A DNA stretch of 64,000 nt from Escherichia coli (GCF_009931435.1 NZ_CP043414.1), one strand, 5' to 3'. Counted from the first letter of the stretch, positions 16,739-64,000 are shown. The notes: generated from the letters alone by a model not told the origin. Numbers and translations are program-made.

Positions 16739-16776
16739 GTAGGTCGGATAAGCCGCCTTCGCGGCGCATCCGACAC
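16739..16776. repeat. REP (repetitive extragenic palindrome) element in the nuoL-nuoM spacer
   Basis: gtaggtcggataagccgccttcgcggcgcatccgacac matches the enterobacterial REP consensus (imperfect palindrome). Confidence 0.6.
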
Positions 16777-54798: not shown

Positions 54799-56157
54799 AT
54801 GTTGAGTATTTTTAAACCGGCGCCACACAAAGCGCGCTTACCTGCCGCGGAGATCGATCCGACTTATCGTCGATTGCGCTGGCAAATTTTCCTGGGGATA
54901 TTCTTTGGCTATGCTGCTTACTATTTGGTTCGTAAGAACTTTGCGCTCGCTATGCCTTACCTGGTGGAGCAGGGATTCTCACGCGGTGATTTAGGTTTCG
55001 CGCTTTCTGGGATCTCGATCGCCTATGGATTTTCGAAATTCATCATGGGTTCGGTGTCGGATCGCTCGAATCCGCGCGTTTTCCTCCCCGCAGGTTTGAT
55101 TCTGGCGGCGGCAGTGATGCTGTTTATGGGCTTTGTGCCATGGGCGACATCGAGCATTGCGGTAATGTTTGTACTGTTGTTCCTCTGCGGCTGGTTCCAG
55201 GGGATGGGGTGGCCGCCGTGTGGTCGTACTATGGTGCACTGGTGGTCGCAGAAAGAACGTGGCGGCATTGTGTCGGTGTGGAACTGTGCGCACAACGTCG
55301 GTGGTGGTATTCCGCCGCTGCTGTTCCTGCTGGGGATGGCCTGGTTCAATGACTGGCACGCGGCCCTCTATATGCCCGCTTTCTGCGCCATTCTGGTGGC
55401 ACTATTCGCCTTTGCGATGATGCGCGATACCCCACAATCCTGTGGCTTGCCGCCGATCGAAGAGTACAAAAACGATTATCCGGACGACTATAACGAAAAA
55501 GCGGAACAGGAGCTGACCGCAAAGCAAATTTTCATGCAGTACGTGCTGCCGAACAAACTGCTGTGGTACATCGCCATCGCCAACGTGTTCGTTTATCTGC
55601 TGCGTTACGGCATCCTCGACTGGTCACCGACCTACCTGAAAGAAGTTAAGCATTTCGCGCTGGATAAATCCTCCTGGGCCTACTTCCTTTATGAATATGC
55701 GGGCATTCCGGGCACCCTGTTATGCGGCTGGATGTCGGATAAAGTCTTCCGCGGTAACCGTGGGGCAACCGGCGTCTTCTTTATGACACTGGTGACCATC
55801 GCAACTATCGTTTACTGGATGAACCCGGCGGGCAATCCCAACGTCGATATGATTTGTATGATTGTCATCGGCTTCTTGATCTACGGTCCTGTGATGTTGA
55901 TCGGTCTGCATGCGCTGGAACTGGCACCGAAAAAAGCGGCAGGTACGGCAGCGGGCTTTACCGGTCTGTTTGGTTACCTGGGCGGTTCGGTGGCGGCGAG
56001 CGCGATTGTTGGTTACACCGTGGACTTCTTCGGCTGGGATGGCGGTTTTATGGTAATGATTGGCGGCAGCATCCTGGCGGTTATCCTGTTGATAGTTGTG
56101 ATGATTGGCGAAAAACGTCGCCATCAGGAATTACTGCAAAAACGCAATGGAGGCTAA
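54799..56157 (+). CDS. glpT: Glycerol-3-phosphate:phosphate antiporter GlpT (MFS)
   Basis: 452 aa; GGAGG RBS; 12-TM organophosphate:Pi antiporter. Confidence 0.92.
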
Positions 56158-56161
56158 TGGC

Positions 56162-57238
56162 ATGAAATTGACGCTGAAAAACCTTAGCATGGCGATCATG
56201 ATGAGTGGAATGATCATGGGAAGCAGTGCAATGGCGGCGGATAGCAACGAAAAAATAGTCATCGCCCATCGCGGTGCCAGTGGATATTTACCGGAGCATA
56301 CGCTGCCAGCAAAAGCGATGGCGTATGCGCAGGGGGCAGATTATCTGGAACAGGATTTGGTGATGACCAAAGACGACCATCTGGTTGTTCTGCATGACCA
56401 TTATCTCGATCGTGTTACTGATGTCGCCGATCGTTTCCCGGACAGGGCGCGTAAAGATGGCCGTTACTACGCGATAGATTTTACGCTGGATGAAATTAAG
56501 TCGCTGAAATTTACCGAAGGTTTCGATATTGAAAACGGTAAAAAAGTGCAGACTTATCCGGGGCGTTTCCCGATGGGTAAGTCTGACTTCCGGGTGCACA
56601 CCTTTGAAGAAGAGATTGAATTTGTTCAGGGGTTAAATCACTCTACCGGGAAAAATATCGGTATCTATCCAGAAATTAAAGCGCCGTGGTTCCATCATCA
56701 GGAAGGGAAGGATATTGCGGCAAAAACGCTGGAAGTGCTGAAGAAATATGGTTACACCGGCAAGGACGACAAAGTTTATTTGCAATGTTTTGATGTTGAT
56801 GAACTGAAGCGCATTAAAAATGAGCTGGAACCCAAAATGGGCATGGACCTCAATCTGGTACAGTTGATTGCCTATACCGACTGGAATGAAACGCAGCAGA
56901 AACAGCCGGACGGAAGCTGGGTTAATTACAGCTATGACTGGATGTTCAAGCCGGGCGCTATGAAACAGGTAGCGGAATATGCTGATGGCATTGGTCCGGA
57001 TTACCATATGGTGATTGAGGAGACATCGCAGCCGGGTAATATCAAGCTTACCGGAATGGTAAAAGATGCACAGCAGAATAAGCTGGTGGTGCATCCTTAT
57101 ACCGTGCGGGTCGACAAGCTGCCGGAATATGCCACCGATGTGAATCAGTTGTATGATGCTCTGTATAACAAAGCGGGTGTAAATGGGCTGTTTACTGATT
57201 TCCCTGATAAGGCAGTAAAATTCCTTAATAAAGAGTAA
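56162..57238 (+). CDS. glpQ: Periplasmic glycerophosphodiester phosphodiesterase GlpQ
   Basis: 358 aa from MKLTLKNLSMAIMMSGMIMGSSAMA (signal peptide); HRGASGYLPEHT catalytic motif. Confidence 0.92.
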   Translation: MKLTLKNLSMAIMMSGMIMGSSAMAADSNEKIVIAHRGASGYLPEHTLPAKAMAYAQGADYLEQDLVMTKDDHLVVLHDHYLDRVTDVADRFPDRARKDGRYYAIDFTLDEIKSLKFTEGFDIENGKKVQTYPGRFPMGKSDFRVHTFEEEIEFVQGLNHSTGKNIGIYPEIKAPWFHHQEGKDIAAKTLEVLKKYGYTGKDDKVYLQCFDVDELKRIKNELEPKMGMDLNLVQLIAYTDWNETQQKQPDGSWVNYSYDWMFKPGAMKQVAEYADGIGPDYHMVIEETSQPGNIKLTGMVKDAQQNKLVVHPYTVRVDKLPEYATDVNQLYDALYNKAGVNGLFTDFPDKAVKFLNKE

Positions 57239-57245
57239 TGCTACT

Positions 57246-57274
57246 GCAGGATGGCGTTTATGCGCCATCCTCTG
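57246..57274 (+). terminator. Hairpin just downstream of glpQ
   Basis: ggatggcg / cgccatcc stem with a 6-nt loop, 8 nt after the glpQ stop; no strong T-run. Confidence 0.45.
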
Positions 57275-57457
57275 CTAAAGCGAAATAATGCTACTACCGG
57301 TTATTCTTTTCATTAACGGGTGCATCCTGTAAAAAGATGCCAACATAATTTTCGTAAAACTCATTCGTTAAAAAAGCTAACACTGTGCATTGTTATTCTT
57401 TAAACAGTATGAATAGGTCTCAATAATAAATTGTAATGCAGTTTATACTGTAAAGTA

Positions 57458-58528
57458 TTATTCGAATTTCGGAAAGGTAAAGAAAATATTAATGTATCTT
57501 ATTAATTTATCATATTGTTCTTGGGTGAATGCTGTTTGCACACCTTCAGGGCAATATTTACCAGTAATAACCAGTTGCCCATTGCTGTGTTGTACCATTA
57601 AACCTTCTTTTTCCTTTGGATCTACAAAATTAGAATTATCAAATGTGAAGATATTTTTTTCCTGTTTTGAGTAAGTAAAGAAATCTCGTGTATAGCTGAA
57701 ACTATCATTTATTAATGGTGCTAACTTTTTGTCGGCGATATCGATAAGCTCACCACTTAATTTATTGATGTATTTAATTTGCTTCAATTTTTTCTGCGCT
57801 TGCACAATTTGCTTGTAGGTGTTTTCAATTTTTTTAGAAGAATTCTTAAATACATCATAGCGTTCCTCGGAGGATGTGTATTTGTACCATTCTGTATTTT
57901 TCTCAGAATGTTGTAGCAGGTCTGTATATTTTTTTTGATCGCTGTAAAGTTGACTTTTAATACTTTCCTCACTGCTGATCTTATAATGTTTATCAGAGTT
58001 GTTTGTTTTTGAAATGTCCTTTTCTGTCAGTGTCTGGTCCGTGTTGTGGGTATTTTCTTTTGCAACATGCTCATTGATGATGTTAATTGCAGTTTCATAT
58101 TCATTTAAATTTATTGTTCTTTGTGAAAGAAACCCTTCTTTGCTTTCGATACTCAAAACACCTTCGTTGTTTTCACCTCTGGTAAAGGTAAGGATATAGG
58201 GTTCATAATCTTCTGCAAATTCATTTTTATACGTTATGACATGCTCGACAAAATGTCTTATTGGTACGAAACCATAACTGTGAACGTCAATTTTTTTGGT
58301 CTTGACACTATCAATTTCATCTGAGGCTTTCGTGAAAAAAGCCAATAAATTAGCTATGTTGTCTGCTGAGGTTGATAACCCGAATCTACTTTGAGATATT
58401 TTTAGAAACTCATTGCAAAAAATCTCAAGTTTCGCGGTTTGTTGTGATTCTTTGTAAATTTCTGCTGTTTGCAATTTATTATTTTGTAAAATATTACAGC
58501 GAGATAAGTGAATAGATGTATTTGGCAT
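57458..58528 (-). CDS. Orphan hypothetical protein of about 356 aa, no family recognised; AT-rich, foreign-looking
   Basis: Long uninterrupted ORF in a very AT-rich block; ATG at 58528 preceded by AAGGA at good spacing (the track start at 58564 is a TTG); Lys/Glu/Ser/Asn-rich, no TM segment, no motif I can place. Confidence 0.6.
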   Translation of the reverse strand: MPNTSIHLSRCNILQNNKLQTAEIYKESQQTAKLEIFCNEFLKISQSRFGLSTSADNIANLLAFFTKASDEIDSVKTKKIDVHSYGFVPIRHFVEHVITYKNEFAEDYEPYILTFTRGENNEGVLSIESKEGFLSQRTINLNEYETAINIINEHVAKENTHNTDQTLTEKDISKTNNSDKHYKISSEESIKSQLYSDQKKYTDLLQHSEKNTEWYKYTSSEERYDVFKNSSKKIENTYKQIVQAQKKLKQIKYINKLSGELIDIADKKLAPLINDSFSYTRDFFTYSKQEKNIFTFDNSNFVDPKEKEGLMVQHSNGQLVITGKYCPEGVQTAFTQEQYDKLIRYINIFFTFPKFE

Positions 58529-58993
58529 AAATGATTCCTTGTAGTGTGAGTTAACAAGATACAATTTAATCTTTGCAGAATATATTCACTATCAAATTTA
58601 GCTCATTTTATTACGAAGACCTTTACGCATGTTAGAAAGTATCATTATTGTTAATAAATACGGTAATAAGTAACAAACAGATATTGATAACTTCCCTGAC
58701 AAGTTATTAGGTATCCCACTTGAAGATTGAGAATGGCTCCAGAGTAGACTGTGTACTGTTCGCCGGAGTGTCATTACTCTCAACAATCGGTTTTGACAGT
58801 GAGTCGGGCGCTTCATACCGGTTTCTACCTGGAGTCATTGTCACTTCCCTAATCTGGATAAATATTTATCGCTAATTCACAAAGTGGACCAAAATCAGGT
58901 GAAAACGAATTATTACGCATGGTAAAGACTACAGGCCAACTAAGTGTGGCGAATCAGACAATCTTACATTTGTCATCAATCTCATGTCTCACA

Positions 58994-59212
58994 TCAAATT
59001 TTTCCACTCACCACGAGTTGTTCCGTACACGTTTGTAGTAAAAACAGTGGACTGCCTTCTACCGGCTTTTCTTTAGCCAACAACGAAATCTGTCGATAGA
59101 AGGTTGGTTCGTGAGGAACGGAACACAATTCACCTGCAATGGTTTTCAGCGTTAACTCTGGTAATAAGGCGATGCCTAATCCCTGTCGAATAAAATTCAT
59201 CGCTGTATCCAT
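58994..59212 (-). pseudogene. yfaH: C-terminal fragment of a LysR-type regulator (yfaH-like remnant)
   Basis: 72 aa ORF resembling only the C-terminal effector-domain end of LysR proteins (GLGIALLPELTLK...); no HTH-encoding region upstream. Confidence 0.5.
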
Positions 59213-59415
59213 CTGATTAAATTCACATTTTATTTGCTGGGCGCACTATTAGTGGTAGTGGCTGGTGGAGTCTATGCGCTGCAAATGAAGGGTAAAAGCG
59301 GTGTCGCGCTAGTAGTGGCAAAAGAAATTCATTAATACGACACGTTTCATTAAGATTTTTCGCAGGTAACCACCTATAGTCATTGTCGTTAATAAAAAAT
59401 GACAGGCGATAGGGT

Positions 59416-60066
59416 ATGGCAGTTTCAGCAAAGCACGATGAATTTAATCACTGGTGGGCAACAGAGGGCGACTGGGTTGAAGAGCCTAACTATCGCCGTA
59501 ATGGTATGAGCGGGGTGCAATGCGTCGAGCGCAACGGCAAAAAGCTGTATGTGAAGCGCATGACGCATCATCTGTTTCATTCCGTACGTTATCCGTTCGG
59601 TCGACCGACGATTGTCCGTGAGGTTGCGGTAATTAAAGAGCTGGAACGGGCTGGTGTCATTGTGCCGAAAATCGTTTTTGGTGAAGCGGTGAAAATTGAG
59701 GGTGAATGGCGCGCGTTGCTGGTGACGGAAGATATGGCGGGGTTCATAAGTATTGCTGACTGGTATGCCCAGCATGCAGTAACACCTTATTCTGACGATG
59801 TTCGGCAAGCCATGTTGAAAGCTGTGGCGATGGCGTTTAAGAAAATGCATAGCGTTAATCGTCAGCATGGCTGTTGTTACGTTCGCCACATCTATGTGAA
59901 AACAGAAGGTATGGTAGAAGCTGGTTTTCTTGATCTGGAGAAAAGTCGTCGCCGCTTACGTCGGCATAAAGCGATTAATCATGATTTCCGCCAGCTGGAA
60001 AAATATCTGGAGCCGATCCCTAAAGCGGACTGGGAGCAGGTTAAAGCGTATTACTACGCCATGTAA
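59416..60066 (+). CDS. inaA: Acid-inducible Kdo/WaaP-family kinase-like protein InaA
   Basis: 216 aa ORF with ATG start; recognised as InaA. Confidence 0.88.
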   Translation: MAVSAKHDEFNHWWATEGDWVEEPNYRRNGMSGVQCVERNGKKLYVKRMTHHLFHSVRYPFGRPTIVREVAVIKELERAGVIVPKIVFGEAVKIEGEWRALLVTEDMAGFISIADWYAQHAVTPYSDDVRQAMLKAVAMAFKKMHSVNRQHGCCYVRHIYVKTEGMVEAGFLDLEKSRRRLRRHKAINHDFRQLEKYLEPIPKADWEQVKAYYYAM

Positions 60067-60070
60067 TCAC

Positions 60071-60108
60071 GTAGGCCAGATAAGACGCGTAAGCGTCGCA
60101 TCTGGCAC
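60071..60108. repeat. REP element between convergent inaA and yfaE
   Basis: gtaggccagataagacgcgtaagcgtcgcatctggcac, a REP-consensus-like imperfect palindrome. Confidence 0.6.
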
Positions 60109-60118
60109 AAGTACCCGA

Positions 60119-60373
60119 TCACAACTCGATTTCAATATCGCCTTTTGCCCGGCAACAACAGGGCAAAATTTCCCCCGGCTGAATAAAGGCTAACGGTTCG
60201 GCAATCCAGTCCACCTGGCCTGCAACAAGGCGTGTGCGACAGGAACCGCAGTAACCTTCGCGGCACTGGTACTCAACCGCCACATTGTGGGATTCCAGCG
60301 CCGCCAGAAGGGAAGGGTGTTCATCCTGGCACAGCAGTTGTGTGCCAGTGATGCGCAGGGTAACGCGAGCCAT
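60119..60373 (-). CDS. yfaE: 2Fe-2S ferredoxin YfaE (NrdB diferric-tyrosyl cofactor maintenance)
   Basis: 84 aa; plant-type ferredoxin cysteines (CREGYCGSC ... C); start abuts the nrdB stop. Confidence 0.9.
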   Translation of the reverse strand: MARVTLRITGTQLLCQDEHPSLLAALESHNVAVEYQCREGYCGSCRTRLVAGQVDWIAEPLAFIQPGEILPCCCRAKGDIEIEL

Positions 60374-61503
60374 CAGAGCTGGAAGTTACTTAAATCGTCG
60401 GTGTCCACTTCCGAGTCAATCTGCCCGACCAGATAAGAACTCACTTCCACTTCCTGCGGAGCAACCTGTACGTTATCAGACACCAGCCAGGTGTTGATCC
60501 ACGGGATCGGGTTGGAGCGTGTCTGGAACGGCAGATCCAAACCGACCGCCTGCATACGGATATTGGTGATGTATTCAACGTACTGGCAGAGAATGTCTTT
60601 ATTCAGACCAATCATCGAACCGTCACGGAACAGATAATCCGCCCAGTCTTTCTCTTGCTGTGCCGCCTGGACAAACAGGTCATAGCACTCCTGCTTACAC
60701 TCTTCGGCAATTTCTGCCATTTCCGGATCATCCGCACCGCTGCGCAGCAGATTCAGCATATGCTGCGTACCGGTCAGGTGCAGGGCTTCATCGCGGGCAA
60801 TCAGGCGAATAATCTTGGCGTTACCTTCCATCAGTTCGCGTTCTGCAAAGGCAAAGGAACAAGCAAAGCTGACGTAGAAGCGAATGGCTTCCAGTGCGTT
60901 AACGCTCATCAGGCAGAGATACAGTTTTTTCTTCAGCTCACGTAGGCTAACGGTCACGGTTTTACCGTTGACGGTGTGGGTGCCTTCGCCCAGCAGGTGC
61001 CAGTAGCTGGTCATTTCGATCAGTTCATCGTAATAGCTGGAGATCCCTTCCGCACGTTTCTGGATCTGCTCGTTGGTGACGATATCGTCAAACACAACAG
61101 ACGGATCGTTAACGATATTACGAATGATATGAGTATAGGAACGGGAATGAATTGTTTCTGAGAATGCCCAGGTTTCTACCCAGGTTTCCAGTTCCGGGAT
61201 CGAGATCAGCGGCAGCAGTGCCACGTTCGGGCTGCGACCCTGAATGGAGTCCAGCAACGTCTGATATTTCAGGTTGCTGATAAATATGTGTTTTTCGTGT
61301 TCAGGCAGTGCCTGGTAATCGATACGGTCACGAGAAACGTCAACTTCTTCCGGACGCCAGAAGAAAGAGAGCTGCTTTTCGATCAGCTTTTCGAAGATGT
61401 CATATTTTTGCTGATCGTAGCGAGCCACGTTGACCGGCTGACCAAAGAACATCGGTTCTTTGAGCTGATCATTTTTCGTCTGAGAAAAGGTGGTATATGC
61501 CAT
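60373..61503 (-). CDS. nrdB: Class Ia ribonucleotide reductase beta subunit NrdB
   Basis: 376 aa from [17 protein letters not shown]; the track ORF extends 48 codons upstream into the REP region. Confidence 0.93.
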
Positions 61504-61528
61504 GAATGTGTCCTGTTGGGAGTTTAAT

Positions 61529-61640
61529 GCCGGATAAGGCATTTTACGCCGCATCCTGTGCCTGATGCGACGCTGGCGCGTCTTATCAGGCCTACAAATT
61601 CGAGCCGTAGGCCGGATAAGGCATTTACGCCGCATCCGGC
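61529..61640. repeat. BIME: cluster of three REP elements in the nrdA-nrdB spacer
   Basis: Three REP-consensus copies in alternating orientation (gccggataaggcattttacgccgcatcc; gcctgatgcgacgctggcgcgtcttatcaggcctac; gtaggccggataaggcatttacgccgcatccggc). Confidence 0.7.
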
Positions 61641-61649
61641 ATCTCAATA

Positions 61650-63935
61650 TCAGATTTTACATGCGCCGCTTTCGCAGCCATCGTCCTGGATTGACGGCAC
61701 CAGATCGTCTTGTGCGTCTTCAGCACCGTCACGGGTGTTCTGATAATACAGCGTTTTGACCCCGAATTTGTAGGCGGTGAGCAGGTCTTTCAGCAACTGC
61801 TGCATCGGCACTTTTCCTGACGGGAAGCGTGATGGATCGTAGTTGGTGTTAGCAGAGATCGACTGATCGATAAATTTCTGCATGATACCCACCAGTTGCA
61901 GGTAGCCATCGTTACCCGGCATTTCCCACAGCAGCTCATAGGCGTCGTGCAGATGCTCGTAGTCCGGCACCACCTGGCGCAGAATACCGTCTTTCGACGC
62001 TTTGATGCTGACGTAACCACGCGGCGGTTCAATACCGTTAGTAGCGTTAGAGATCTGCGAAGAAGTCTCTGACGGCATCAGAGCAGAAAGCGTGGAGTTA
62101 CGCAGGCCGTGCGTTTTGATTGACTCACGCAGTGCTTCCCAGTCGTAATGCAGCGGCTCATTAGCGATGGCATCCAGATCTTTCTTATAGGTATCGATCG
62201 GCAGGATCCCTTTCGCGTAAGTGGTTTCGTTAAACCACGGGCACGCGCCTTGCTCTTTCGCCAGCTCATTAGAGGCTTTCAGCAGGTAATACTGAATAGC
62301 TTCGAAGGTTTTATGCGTCAGGTTGTTGGCGCTGCCGTCGGAGTAGCGTTTACCGTGCTTCGCCAGGTAGTAAGCGAAGTTGATCACACCAATACCCAGC
62401 GTACGACGACCCATCGCTCCACGTTTGGCGGCCGGGATCGGGTAATCCTGATAATCCAGCAGCGCGTCGAGTGCGCGTACTGCCAGAATCGCCAGCTCTT
62501 CCAGTTCATCCAGGCTATTAATTGCGCCCAGGTTGAAAGCAGACAGCGTACACAGCGCGATTTCACCGTTCTCGTCGTTGACATCATTCAGCGGTTTGGT
62601 CGGCAGGGCGATTTCCAGGCACAGGTTAGACTGGCGCACTGGCGCGATGGCCGGATCAAACGGGCTATGGGTATTGCAGTGGTCAACGTTCTGAATATAG
62701 ATACGACCGGTAGACGCACGTTCCTGCATCATCAGCGAGAACAGCTCAACGGCTTTCACACGCTGCTTGCGGATGCTGTCGTCTTTCTCATATTTGGTGT
62801 ACAGGCGTTCAAACTCTTCCTGATCGGCGAAGAACGCGTCGTACAGCCCCGGTACGTCGGACGGGCTGAACAGGGTGATATCTTCACCTTTCAGCAGACG
62901 GGTATACATCAGTTTGTTGATTTGTACCCCGTAGTCCATATGACGCACGCGGTTGCCTTCAACCCCACGGTTGTTTTTCAACACCAGCAGGCTTTCCACT
63001 TCCAGATGCCACATAGGGTAGAACAGTGTTGCCGCACCGCCGCGCACACCGCCCTGAGAGCAGGATTTCACTGCCGTCTGGAAATGTTTGTAGAACGGAA
63101 TACAACCGGTGTGGAATGCTTCGCCACCGCGAATCGGGCTACCCAGCGCACGAATACGCCCGGCGTTAATGCCGATCCCGGCACGCTGGGAAACGTATTT
63201 AACAATCGCGCTGGAGGTGGCGTTGATGGAATCCAGGCTGTCGCCGCACTCGATCAGTACGCAGGAGCTGAACTGACGAGTCGGGGTACGCACGCCGGAC
63301 ATGATTGGCGTCGGCAGCGAAATTTTAAATGTGGAAACCGCGTCGTAAAAACGCTTCACGTATTGCAGGCGCGTTTCACGCGGGTAGTTCGAGAACAGGC
63401 ACGCAGCAACCAGAATATAGAGGAACTGGGCGCTCTCATAGATTTCGCCGGTCACGCGGTTCTGTACCAGATATTTGCCTTCCAGCTGCTTAACGGCAGC
63501 ATAAGAGAAGGTCATATCACGGTCGTGATCGATAAACGTGTCCATCTGCTTGAACTCTTCTTCCGTGTAGTCTTCCAGCAGATGATTATCGTATTTGCCC
63601 ATCTCGACCATTTTCACCACGTGGTCGTACAGCGCAGGCGGCTCAAACTGGCCATAGGCTTTTTTACGCAGGTGGAAAATTGCCAGGCGCGCGGCGAGAT
63701 ACTGATAATCCGGCGCATCACGGGAGATCAGGTCTGCGGCAGCCTTGATAATGGTTTCGTGGATGTCAGAGGTCTTGATACCGTCATAAAACTGAATGTG
63801 GGAGCGCAGCTCGACCTGGGAAATCGAAACGTTATGCAGTCCTTCTGCCGCCCAATCCAGAACGCGATGGATTTTGTCGAGATTGATGCGCTCTGTGCTA
63901 CCGTCGCGCTTTGTCACCAGCAGATTCTGATTCAT
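61650..63935 (-). CDS. nrdA: Class Ia ribonucleotide reductase alpha subunit NrdA
   Basis: 761 aa from [26 protein letters not shown] (ATP-cone), C-terminal redox-active cysteine pair. Confidence 0.93.
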
Positions 63936-64000
63936 GTATGTCGTACCTGTTTTTGGAATTCTTTCCGCAATAGTTTCATGCAGACTACCTGTAGTGAGGG

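Follow-up and report, generated by a model that had tools for sequence, protein, structure and literature searches.

The last 4 kb of the window (the whole stretch of DNA that was analysed, 64,000 nt of Escherichia coli, GCF_009931435.1, NZ_CP043414.1) carry nrdA, nrdB and yfaE on the minus strand. Positions 61504–61649 are exactly the 146-nt spacer that runs from the nrdA stop codon to the nrdB ATG. On the mRNA, this spacer reads TATTGAGAT, REP-a, the linker GGCTCGAATTT, the inverted REP-b, REP-c, the nrdB Shine-Dalgarno sequence and then the nrdB start (Table 1). The original prediction described the spacer as almost entirely REP sequence, and indeed 106 of its 146 nt are REP sequence, to which an 11-nt linker is added. 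The 9-nt gap ahead of REP-a, in the form TATTG[A/T]GAT, is kept in all of the REP-bearing E. coli and E. albertii alleles that were compared.

For positions 56000–64000, none of 5,426 complete E. coli genomes came closer than 98.3% identity over 8 kb, which indicates an E. coli-like lineage that is not closely represented among the complete RefSeq genomes. (Identity is about 93.7% for two divergent Escherichia loci, one from E. albertii and one from a species-representative contig labelled 'E. coli'.)

Table 1. Features in and around the nrdA–nrdB spacer, in the order of the mRNA (positions in the window)
Feature	Position	Strand	Remarks
nrdA	61650..63935	-	761 aa; gene name as in RefSeq annotation of homologous E. 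coli loci
nrdA stop codon (TGA)	61650..61652	-	NrdA translation ends ...GCESGACKI, then stop
9-nt gap TATTGAGAT	61641..61649	-	from nrdA stop to first paired base of REP-a hairpin
REP-a, Y-type, GCCGGATGCGGCGTAAATGCCTTATCCGGCCTAC	61607-61640	-	first hairpin on nrdAB mRNA; intact CTAC/GTAG tail
Linker GGCTCGAATTT, 11 nt, S-type	61596..61606	-	tail-to-tail, between REP-a and REP-b
REP-b, Z2-type, GCCTGATGCGACGCTGGCGCGTCTTATCAGGCCTAC	61560-61595	+	inverted relative to REP-a and REP-c; GTAGGCCTGATAAGACGCGCCAGCGTCGCATCAGGC in mRNA direction
REP-c, degenerate Y-type, ACAGGATGCGGCGTAAAATGCCTTATCCGGCATTAA	61524-61559	-	head ACAGG; tail GGCATTAA, no GTAG/CTAC; core intact
nrdB Shine-Dalgarno AGGA	61511..61514	-	14 nt downstream of REP-c stem; then 7 nt, then ATG
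nrdB start codon (ATG)	61501..61503	-	start of RefSeq nrdB
nrdB	60373..61503	-	376 aa; gene name as in RefSeq annotation of homologous E. coli loci
yoaM homologue, 11 aa	61502-61537	+	start antisense to and overlapping nrdB ATG; stop TAA inside REP-c

Identity and class of the repeats

A REP was taken to be an imperfect palindrome of 30–40 nt that matches GCCGGATGCGGCGTGAACGCCTTATCCGGCCTAC, and all three units answer to this description. REP-a agrees at 32 of 34 positions with the published consensus (GCCGGATGCGGCGTGAACGCCTTATCCGGCCTACGA, as quoted in PMC12306157). In global alignments to that consensus, REP-a, REP-b and REP-c score 30, 18 and 18, corresponding to z values of 16, 8.8 and 8.6 against random 36-mers from the window (mean about 3, sd 1.7). 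These alignments, along with those to the naRNA4 model described below, are the evidence of identity that was relied upon. Among the pattern searches, a 27-nt Y-core pattern with up to three mismatches had no match in 100 shuffles, and a loose REP pattern gave about 1.3 matches per shuffled window and several false matches inside genes. A stricter Y pattern missed REP-c because of an extra loop base in that unit. A mismatch with the REP consensus on formal alignment, which the original prediction had named as grounds for giving it up, was not found: all three units align, and the claim of three REPs in alternating orientation (−, +, −) between nrdA and nrdB stands on both the consensus and the naRNA4 model.

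The units are also REP-like in their distribution. They are extragenic, lying entirely in the interval from the nrdA stop to the nrdB start, and they are dispersed in many copies, with medians of 12 to 34 places per E. coli genome for the REP sequences of the spacer (at least 34 when the K-12 spacer is the query). The CTAC tetranucleotide and the internal stem mismatch are present in REP-a and REP-b. REP-c has ATTAA where CCTAC is expected and so is missing the GTAG/CTAC feature, which, together with the stem mismatch, is needed for TnpA-REP binding (Ton-Hoang et al., PMC3333891). On this ground REP-c is regarded as a decayed copy. Its sequence is identical in K-12, O157(:H7) and E. albertii.

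In the scheme of Ton-Hoang et al. (PMC3333891), BIME-1 elements combine Y and Z1 units with a long L linker, often with an IHF site, and occur singly; BIME-2 elements combine Y and Z2 units with a short S linker and flanking motifs of the s, l or r kind, and occur in tandem in a copy number that varies between strains. In the spacer, the order Y(−), Z2(+), Y′(−) has the composition and the alternating orientation of BIME-2, the tail-to-tail linker GGCTCGAATTT is of the short S kind at 11 nt, and the tandem copy number is variable, with alleles of 146, 233 and 320 nt. REP-b and REP-c meet head to head at a junction of about 3 nt (ACA), without the 13-nt l motif that naRNA4 has there; the other head-to-head junction in K-12 reads TCCGGGT. 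No match to the IHF consensus WATCARNNNNTTR was found on either strand of the spacer. On its sequence the nrdA–nrdB cluster is a BIME-2 and not a BIME-1, because of its Y and Z2 units, its 11-nt linker and the missing IHF consensus. Like an IHF-binding element of the BIME-1 type (RIP/RIB), it has two inverted REPs joined by a linker, as BIMEs generally do, but its inverted unit is Z2 rather than Z1, its linker is only 11 nt and free of WATCARNNNNTTR, and its tandem number varies. That the cluster is such an element is exceedingly improbable, and the candidate was rejected on these sequence features.

Rfam has no REP family. Its naRNA4 entry (RF02564) is the Y-l-Z2 unit of REP325, a six-fold Y-l-Z2 BIME-2 between yjdM and yjdN. 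The spacer has naRNA4 matches of 53.7, 36.2 and 34.7 bits, all below the gathering score of 59.5, and membership in this family was consequently rejected. The best match (E = 3e-9) is to the REP-c/REP-b pair on the plus strand. The Y and Z2 palindromes are common to both elements, and the Z2 half, REP-b, is nearly identical to the model consensus, but the head-to-head junction at nrdA–nrdB has the 13-nt l linker deleted. The setting is different as well, in that the nrdA–nrdB cluster lies inside the mRNA of an essential operon, whereas REP325 lies after a gene. We know of no HU-binding or nucleoid role for the nrdA–nrdB cluster. Could a Y–Z2 pair nevertheless be cut from the mRNA to become a nucleoid-associated, HU-binding small RNA, like naRNA4 from REP325? 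The sub-threshold matches are in its favor, and so is a cited study in which many annotated REP elements are reported as transcribed, almost 80% according to the abstract and 152 of 355 in minimal medium. However, the model mainly recognises generic Y and Z2 sequence, no match reaches the gathering score, the best one is antisense to nrdAB, and the l linker is missing, all of which makes such an RNA very unlikely. (Weak matches to MIR814 were dismissed as noise.)

The K-12 allele and its reported activities

The BIME-2 between nrdA and nrdB has already been described in K-12, and the window harbors a short allele of this known element. The K-12 cluster occupies the same site and is built of the same Y and Z2 units, again with the degenerate REP-c as its last Y. 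The two alleles share an identical 9-nt gap behind the nrdA stop and differ at one base from REP-c through the nrdB ATG. The K-12 MG1655 spacer is 233 nt long and has five REPs, as opposed to three REPs in 146 nt in the window, which amounts to one 87-nt Y+S+Z2+l unit fewer. Smaller differences are found in REP-a, where the loop-closing C of K-12 is a T in the window, giving a G·U pair and a predicted −18.7 compared to −20.5 kcal/mol in K-12, and in the linker, which is GGCTCGAATTT compared to GGCTCGGTTT and GGCTCGGATTT in the aligned K-12 linkers. All of the functional data pertain to the K-12 allele with five REPs and not to the three-REP allele of the window.

At the DNA level, Table DS3 of the gyrase Topo-seq study of Sutormin et al. 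2019 (PMC6379681) lists 'BIMEs2 nrdA>-nrdB>' (202 bp) with 2 gyrase cleavage sites under ciprofloxacin (Cfx), 3 under rifampicin and ciprofloxacin (RifCfx), 0 under microcin (Micro) and 3 under oxolinic acid (Oxo). The same entry notes 2 cuts in vivo from Espeli & Boccard 1997. Over the genome, gyrase sites are over-represented in BIME-2, mostly in Y REPs, and more so when transcription is blocked, according to that paper (PMC6379681). At the RNA level, REPs less than 16 nt from a stop codon are reported to cause ribosome stalling and to reduce translation, and nrdAB is cited as a reported transcript with a REP within 15 nt of the stop codon (PMC12306157, citing Liang, Rudd & Deutscher 2015). 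REP-type stem-loops also shield transcripts from 3′ exonucleases (PMC6061677).

In the window, the REP-a stem begins 9 nt past the TGA, a distance that puts REP-a within the 15-nt limit for stop-codon proximity. The work of Liang, Rudd and Deutscher reportedly used nrdAB as its model; the stalled ribosome is said to lead to cleavage of the mRNA and to trans-translation, and both overexpression of RNA helicase and UV stress reportedly lift the regulation of nrdAB. The suggestion that the BIME could affect mRNA stability or serve as a gyrase or IHF site has therefore fared unevenly: mRNA fate and gyrase are plausible from the data on the K-12 allele, while IHF falls away with the Y and Z2 units, the 11-nt linker and the lack of WATCARNNNNTTR.

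Variation among E. coli strains

A comparison of REP copy number at this site across strains, which had been proposed as a check, was made in 5,426 complete E. coli genomes, and the spacer was found to have 0, 3, 4, 5 or 7 REPs (Table 2). The counts for the REP-less and the REP-bearing spacers are exact. Frequencies of the individual length classes are estimates from evenly spaced rows of the match ranking, in which the three-REP form made up 10 of 60 and 9 of 40 sampled rows; estimates were needed because BLAST joins overlapping pieces, so that genomes with three and with five REPs both have 100% query coverage.

Table 2. Spacer alleles between nrdA and nrdB in complete E. coli genomes
Spacer length	Content	Frequency	Basis
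88 nt	no REP; different GC-rich hairpin repeat CCCCTCTCCCCTTGCGGGAGAGGGTTAGGGTGAGGGG	1,684 genomes (31%)	exact count
any length	REP-bearing spacer	3,726 genomes	exact count
233 nt	5 REPs, K-12 form	about 37%	estimate
146 nt	3 REPs, window form	about 17-22%	estimate
226 nt	5 REPs, O157 form	about 7%	estimate
189 nt	4 REPs of other subtypes	about 5%	estimate
241 nt and 320 nt	rare forms; 320 nt = 7 REPs	rare	

The three-REP form is thus a common short allele. The series of 146, 233 and 320 nt advances in steps of exactly 87 nt, or one Y+S+Z2+l unit, and among the spacers compared the window has the minimal REP-bearing allele. The 320-nt, seven-REP allele was found in E. coli O157:H7 strain TR01 (L127 293-612); the spacer is 226 nt in the other O157:H7 strains that were sampled, which shows a recent expansion by 87-nt units within the clone.

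The 88-nt spacer, of which E. coli SFE8 (L005 352-439) and CUVET16-394 (L006 347-434) are examples, contains a repeat whose median number of places per genome is 14. It is probably BoxC, an assignment made by its copy number and size, which fit those reported (PMC2267715), and not by consensus alignment. The first strong hairpin of this allele begins 19 nt past the stop codon of nrdA, beyond the 15 nt reported as the limit. With 31% of strains lacking any REP, and with the hairpin at 19 nt, any function that the BIME has must be either dispensable or replaceable for this essential operon. To our knowledge, no phenotype has been associated with the variation from 0 to 7 copies.

The corresponding site in other species

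Loci from other species were collected by a scan for the conserved NrdA C-terminus (…CESGACKI and the stop codon) in one genome per species, a sample that leaves Salmonella and many others outside. The scan found at least 120 loci, and nrdB is directly next to nrdA in 116 of those listed. Within the genus, E. albertii has five REPs in a 240-nt spacer, and three REPs in 145 nt are found in a divergent Escherichia. REP pairs of their own genus type are present in Citrobacter, Klebsiella oxytoca, Kluyvera, Superficieibacter and others, and Pseudocitrobacter faecalis (L045) has two BoxC-like elements at the site.

Many related genera have instead a spacer of ~50-60 nt, with a terminator-like hairpin and a T-run 1–5 nt after the nrdA stop, such as GGGGCGGGGAAACCCGCCCTTTTTTT. 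These include Enterobacter sp., Kosakonia, Atlantibacter, Cedecea, Buttiauxella and two metagenome-assembled genomes labelled Proteobacteria (loci L007, L078, L104, L046, L026, L115, L055 and L095). Such hairpins imply a terminator or attenuator between the subunit genes at the place where E. coli has REPs. Other Enterobacterales are like E. coli in having a stable stem-loop that starts no more than about 10 nt past the nrdA stop, with the nrdB ribosome-binding site free behind it, but their hairpin sequences are unrelated to the E. coli REPs, and the terminator-like ones have a T-run, which the E. coli REPs do not.

A hairpin of −8 kcal/mol or lower that starts within 15 nt of the nrdA stop was found in 73 of 100 species among the matches listed. 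When the spacers were shuffled, 20 rounds gave a mean of 33 and a maximum of 43 of 100. Since the species are related, the figure of 73 of 100 overstates the independent evidence. The stop-proximal hairpins stem from unrelated sequences, including genus-specific REPs, terminator-like hairpins and BoxC-like repeats, which suggests, as a lead from related species with shuffled spacers as the control, that the recurring feature is a hairpin close to the stop codon rather than the REP itself. One could speculate, and this is a long shot, that selection keeps a stable hairpin no farther than ~10-15 nt from the nrdA stop, whatever its sequence, and that the natural E. coli alleles (without REPs and with the hairpin at 19 nt, or with 3, 5 or 7 REPs) confer different NrdA:NrdB ratios or a different release under stress. 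If so, there would be heritable variation in dNTP supply from strain to strain.

RNA folding and a proposed mode of action

The predicted energies of the individual hairpins are −19.5 kcal/mol for REP-a, −21.9 for REP-b (on either strand) and −13.3 for REP-c, and the whole spacer has a predicted fold of −65.2 kcal/mol (z = −5.1). The minimum-energy fold (61524-61645, minus strand) does not consist of three local hairpins. Rather, it joins the 5′ half of REP-a to the 3′ half of REP-c and pairs the tails of REP-a and REP-b around the linker. Because this fold is long-range, the two Y units can, as modelled, compete between a local and a nested arrangement. In both predicted folds the nrdB Shine-Dalgarno sequence is unpaired.

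None of the three hairpins is followed by a T-run, and no terminator-like site on the minus strand and no promoter-like site for nrdB were found in the 600 bases scanned around the spacer. This implies that nrdB is read from the same transcript as nrdA and that the cluster, having no intrinsic terminator between the genes, is transcribed inside the nrdAB mRNA. An intrinsic terminator and an internal promoter in or next to the spacer, which were considered as candidates, were thus both rejected for the relevant strand.

Taken together, it is highly probable that the window harbors the shortest REP-bearing allele of a known BIME-2, carried in the nrdAB mRNA, with roles as RNA hairpins and as a gyrase site like those indicated by the K-12 homologue. 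Judging by homology with K-12 and by the anatomy of the units, each REP would fold into a stable RNA hairpin. The REP-a hairpin would then hinder the ribosome that terminates on nrdA and thereby lower translation of nrdA, the gene upstream, and the hairpins should also block 3′-to-5′ exonucleases, so that the nrdA segment would be protected. At the same time, nrdB could initiate independently, since its ribosome-binding site is predicted to stay unpaired. At the DNA level, the Y/Z2 pair would be a preferred DNA gyrase cleavage site. As to its origin, the cluster is presumably a dispersed repeat of the kind that is processed by a REP-associated tyrosine transposase, the copy number of which would drift in whole units.

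Alternative explanations

Why is there a REP cluster between the two subunit genes at all? One answer, possible although on the whole we doubt it, is that it is essentially neutral or selfish repeat DNA, there because transcribed spacers collect REPs directly behind stop codons, and that any effects on nrdAB or on gyrase are incidental and not selected. The polymorphism within one species fits this well: presence and copy number both vary (0, 3, 4, 5 or 7 REPs, with none in 31% of strains), the changes are by whole 87-nt units, as expected from recombination or processing of the TnpA(REP) type, and REP-c is a decayed copy without GTAG. On the other hand, the REP-less allele is not empty, but has another dispersed repeat that forms a hairpin, and a hairpin near the nrdA stop is found in 73 of 100 species listed, made of unrelated sequences, as opposed to about 33 in shuffles. 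Effects on translation and gyrase cleavage have also been reported for the K-12 allele.

The main role of the cluster might be at the DNA level, with the BIME-2 serving as a strong, transcription-independent gyrase site that relieves or sets supercoiling in the highly expressed nrdAB operon. The gyrase data are in keeping with this, since the K-12 element is cleaved under three of four conditions, had 2 cuts in the older in vivo study, and belongs to a class that is enriched in sites, with a preference for Y REPs, and that gains more of them under a block of transcription (PMC6379681). However, most BIME-2 rows in the Table DS3 excerpts have zero cleavage sites, so that being a BIME-2 is, by those excerpts, no guarantee of cleavage. 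Furthermore, the three-REP allele offers fewer targets, the element is missing in 31% of strains, and in other genera the spot is taken by a plain RNA terminator-like hairpin, an indication of a constraint at the RNA level. We consider such a primary role in supercoiling unlikely. Still somewhat less credible is that the cluster acts as a transcriptional attenuator or partial terminator that lowers transcription of nrdB (and yfaE) relative to nrdA. BIMEs have been described as transcriptional attenuators, sometimes with a direct part in Rho-dependent termination (Espeli et al. 2001, as represented in citing papers), and a hairpin with a T-run 1–5 nt after the nrdA stop, such as GGGGCGGGGAAACCCGCCCTTTTTTT, is found in many related genera. 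Against this, the three REPs have no T-run behind them and the minus strand no terminator-like site, and nrdB is the essential partner subunit, for which no promoter-like site was seen in the 600 bases scanned. No published RNA 3′ ends for the spacer were found, and the main text of the Term-seq paper does not mention nrdA.

Open reading frames across the repeats

The original prediction also held that the ORFs running through the cluster are spurious, and this has to be qualified. The 424-aa extension of nrdB (starting with TTG at 61647) does cross the REPs and is an artefact of ORF calling. However, the plus strand has an intact homologue of yoaM, which is annotated in K-12 (b4779) and for which a yoaM-lacZ fusion supports translation (Weaver et al., bioRxiv 10.1101/511675). 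Because its TAA lies inside REP-c, this ORF ends within a REP hairpin. K-12 YoaM has S at position 2. No sigma-70-like promoter for yoaM was found in 61150-61520, although for K-12 a start of transcription has been reported at 174 nt upstream.

Implications and other REPs in the window

The first reading of the locus was mostly correct: the BIME, the link to mRNA fate and gyrase hold, while IHF and the dismissal of all ORFs do not. For annotation, the spacer should be entered as a BIME-2 repeat region, the nrdB start placed at the ATG at 61503, and the 11-codon yoaM kept. The natural alleles with 0 to 7 REPs are ready material with which to test effects on the balance of the reductase subunits. 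The view of what REPs are is unchanged by the nrdA–nrdB data; what is new, and only mildly so, is the spectrum of alleles in the population, with a third of strains having a different repeat in place of the REPs, and the finding that hairpins close to the stop recur across genera.

REPs also occur elsewhere in the window. A single Z2-like REP, GCCAGATGCGACGCTTACGCGTCTTATCTGGCCTA, at 60072-60106 on the minus strand, begins 12 nt past the stop codon of yfaE, where the nrdAB-yfaE operon ends and faces inaA; it has a sub-threshold naRNA4 match of 36.7 bits. In addition, a REP-like palindrome, GGATGCGCCGCGAAGGCGGCTTATCCGA, is found at about 16744-16771 (minus strand), with a match to a CTAC-type tail nearby.
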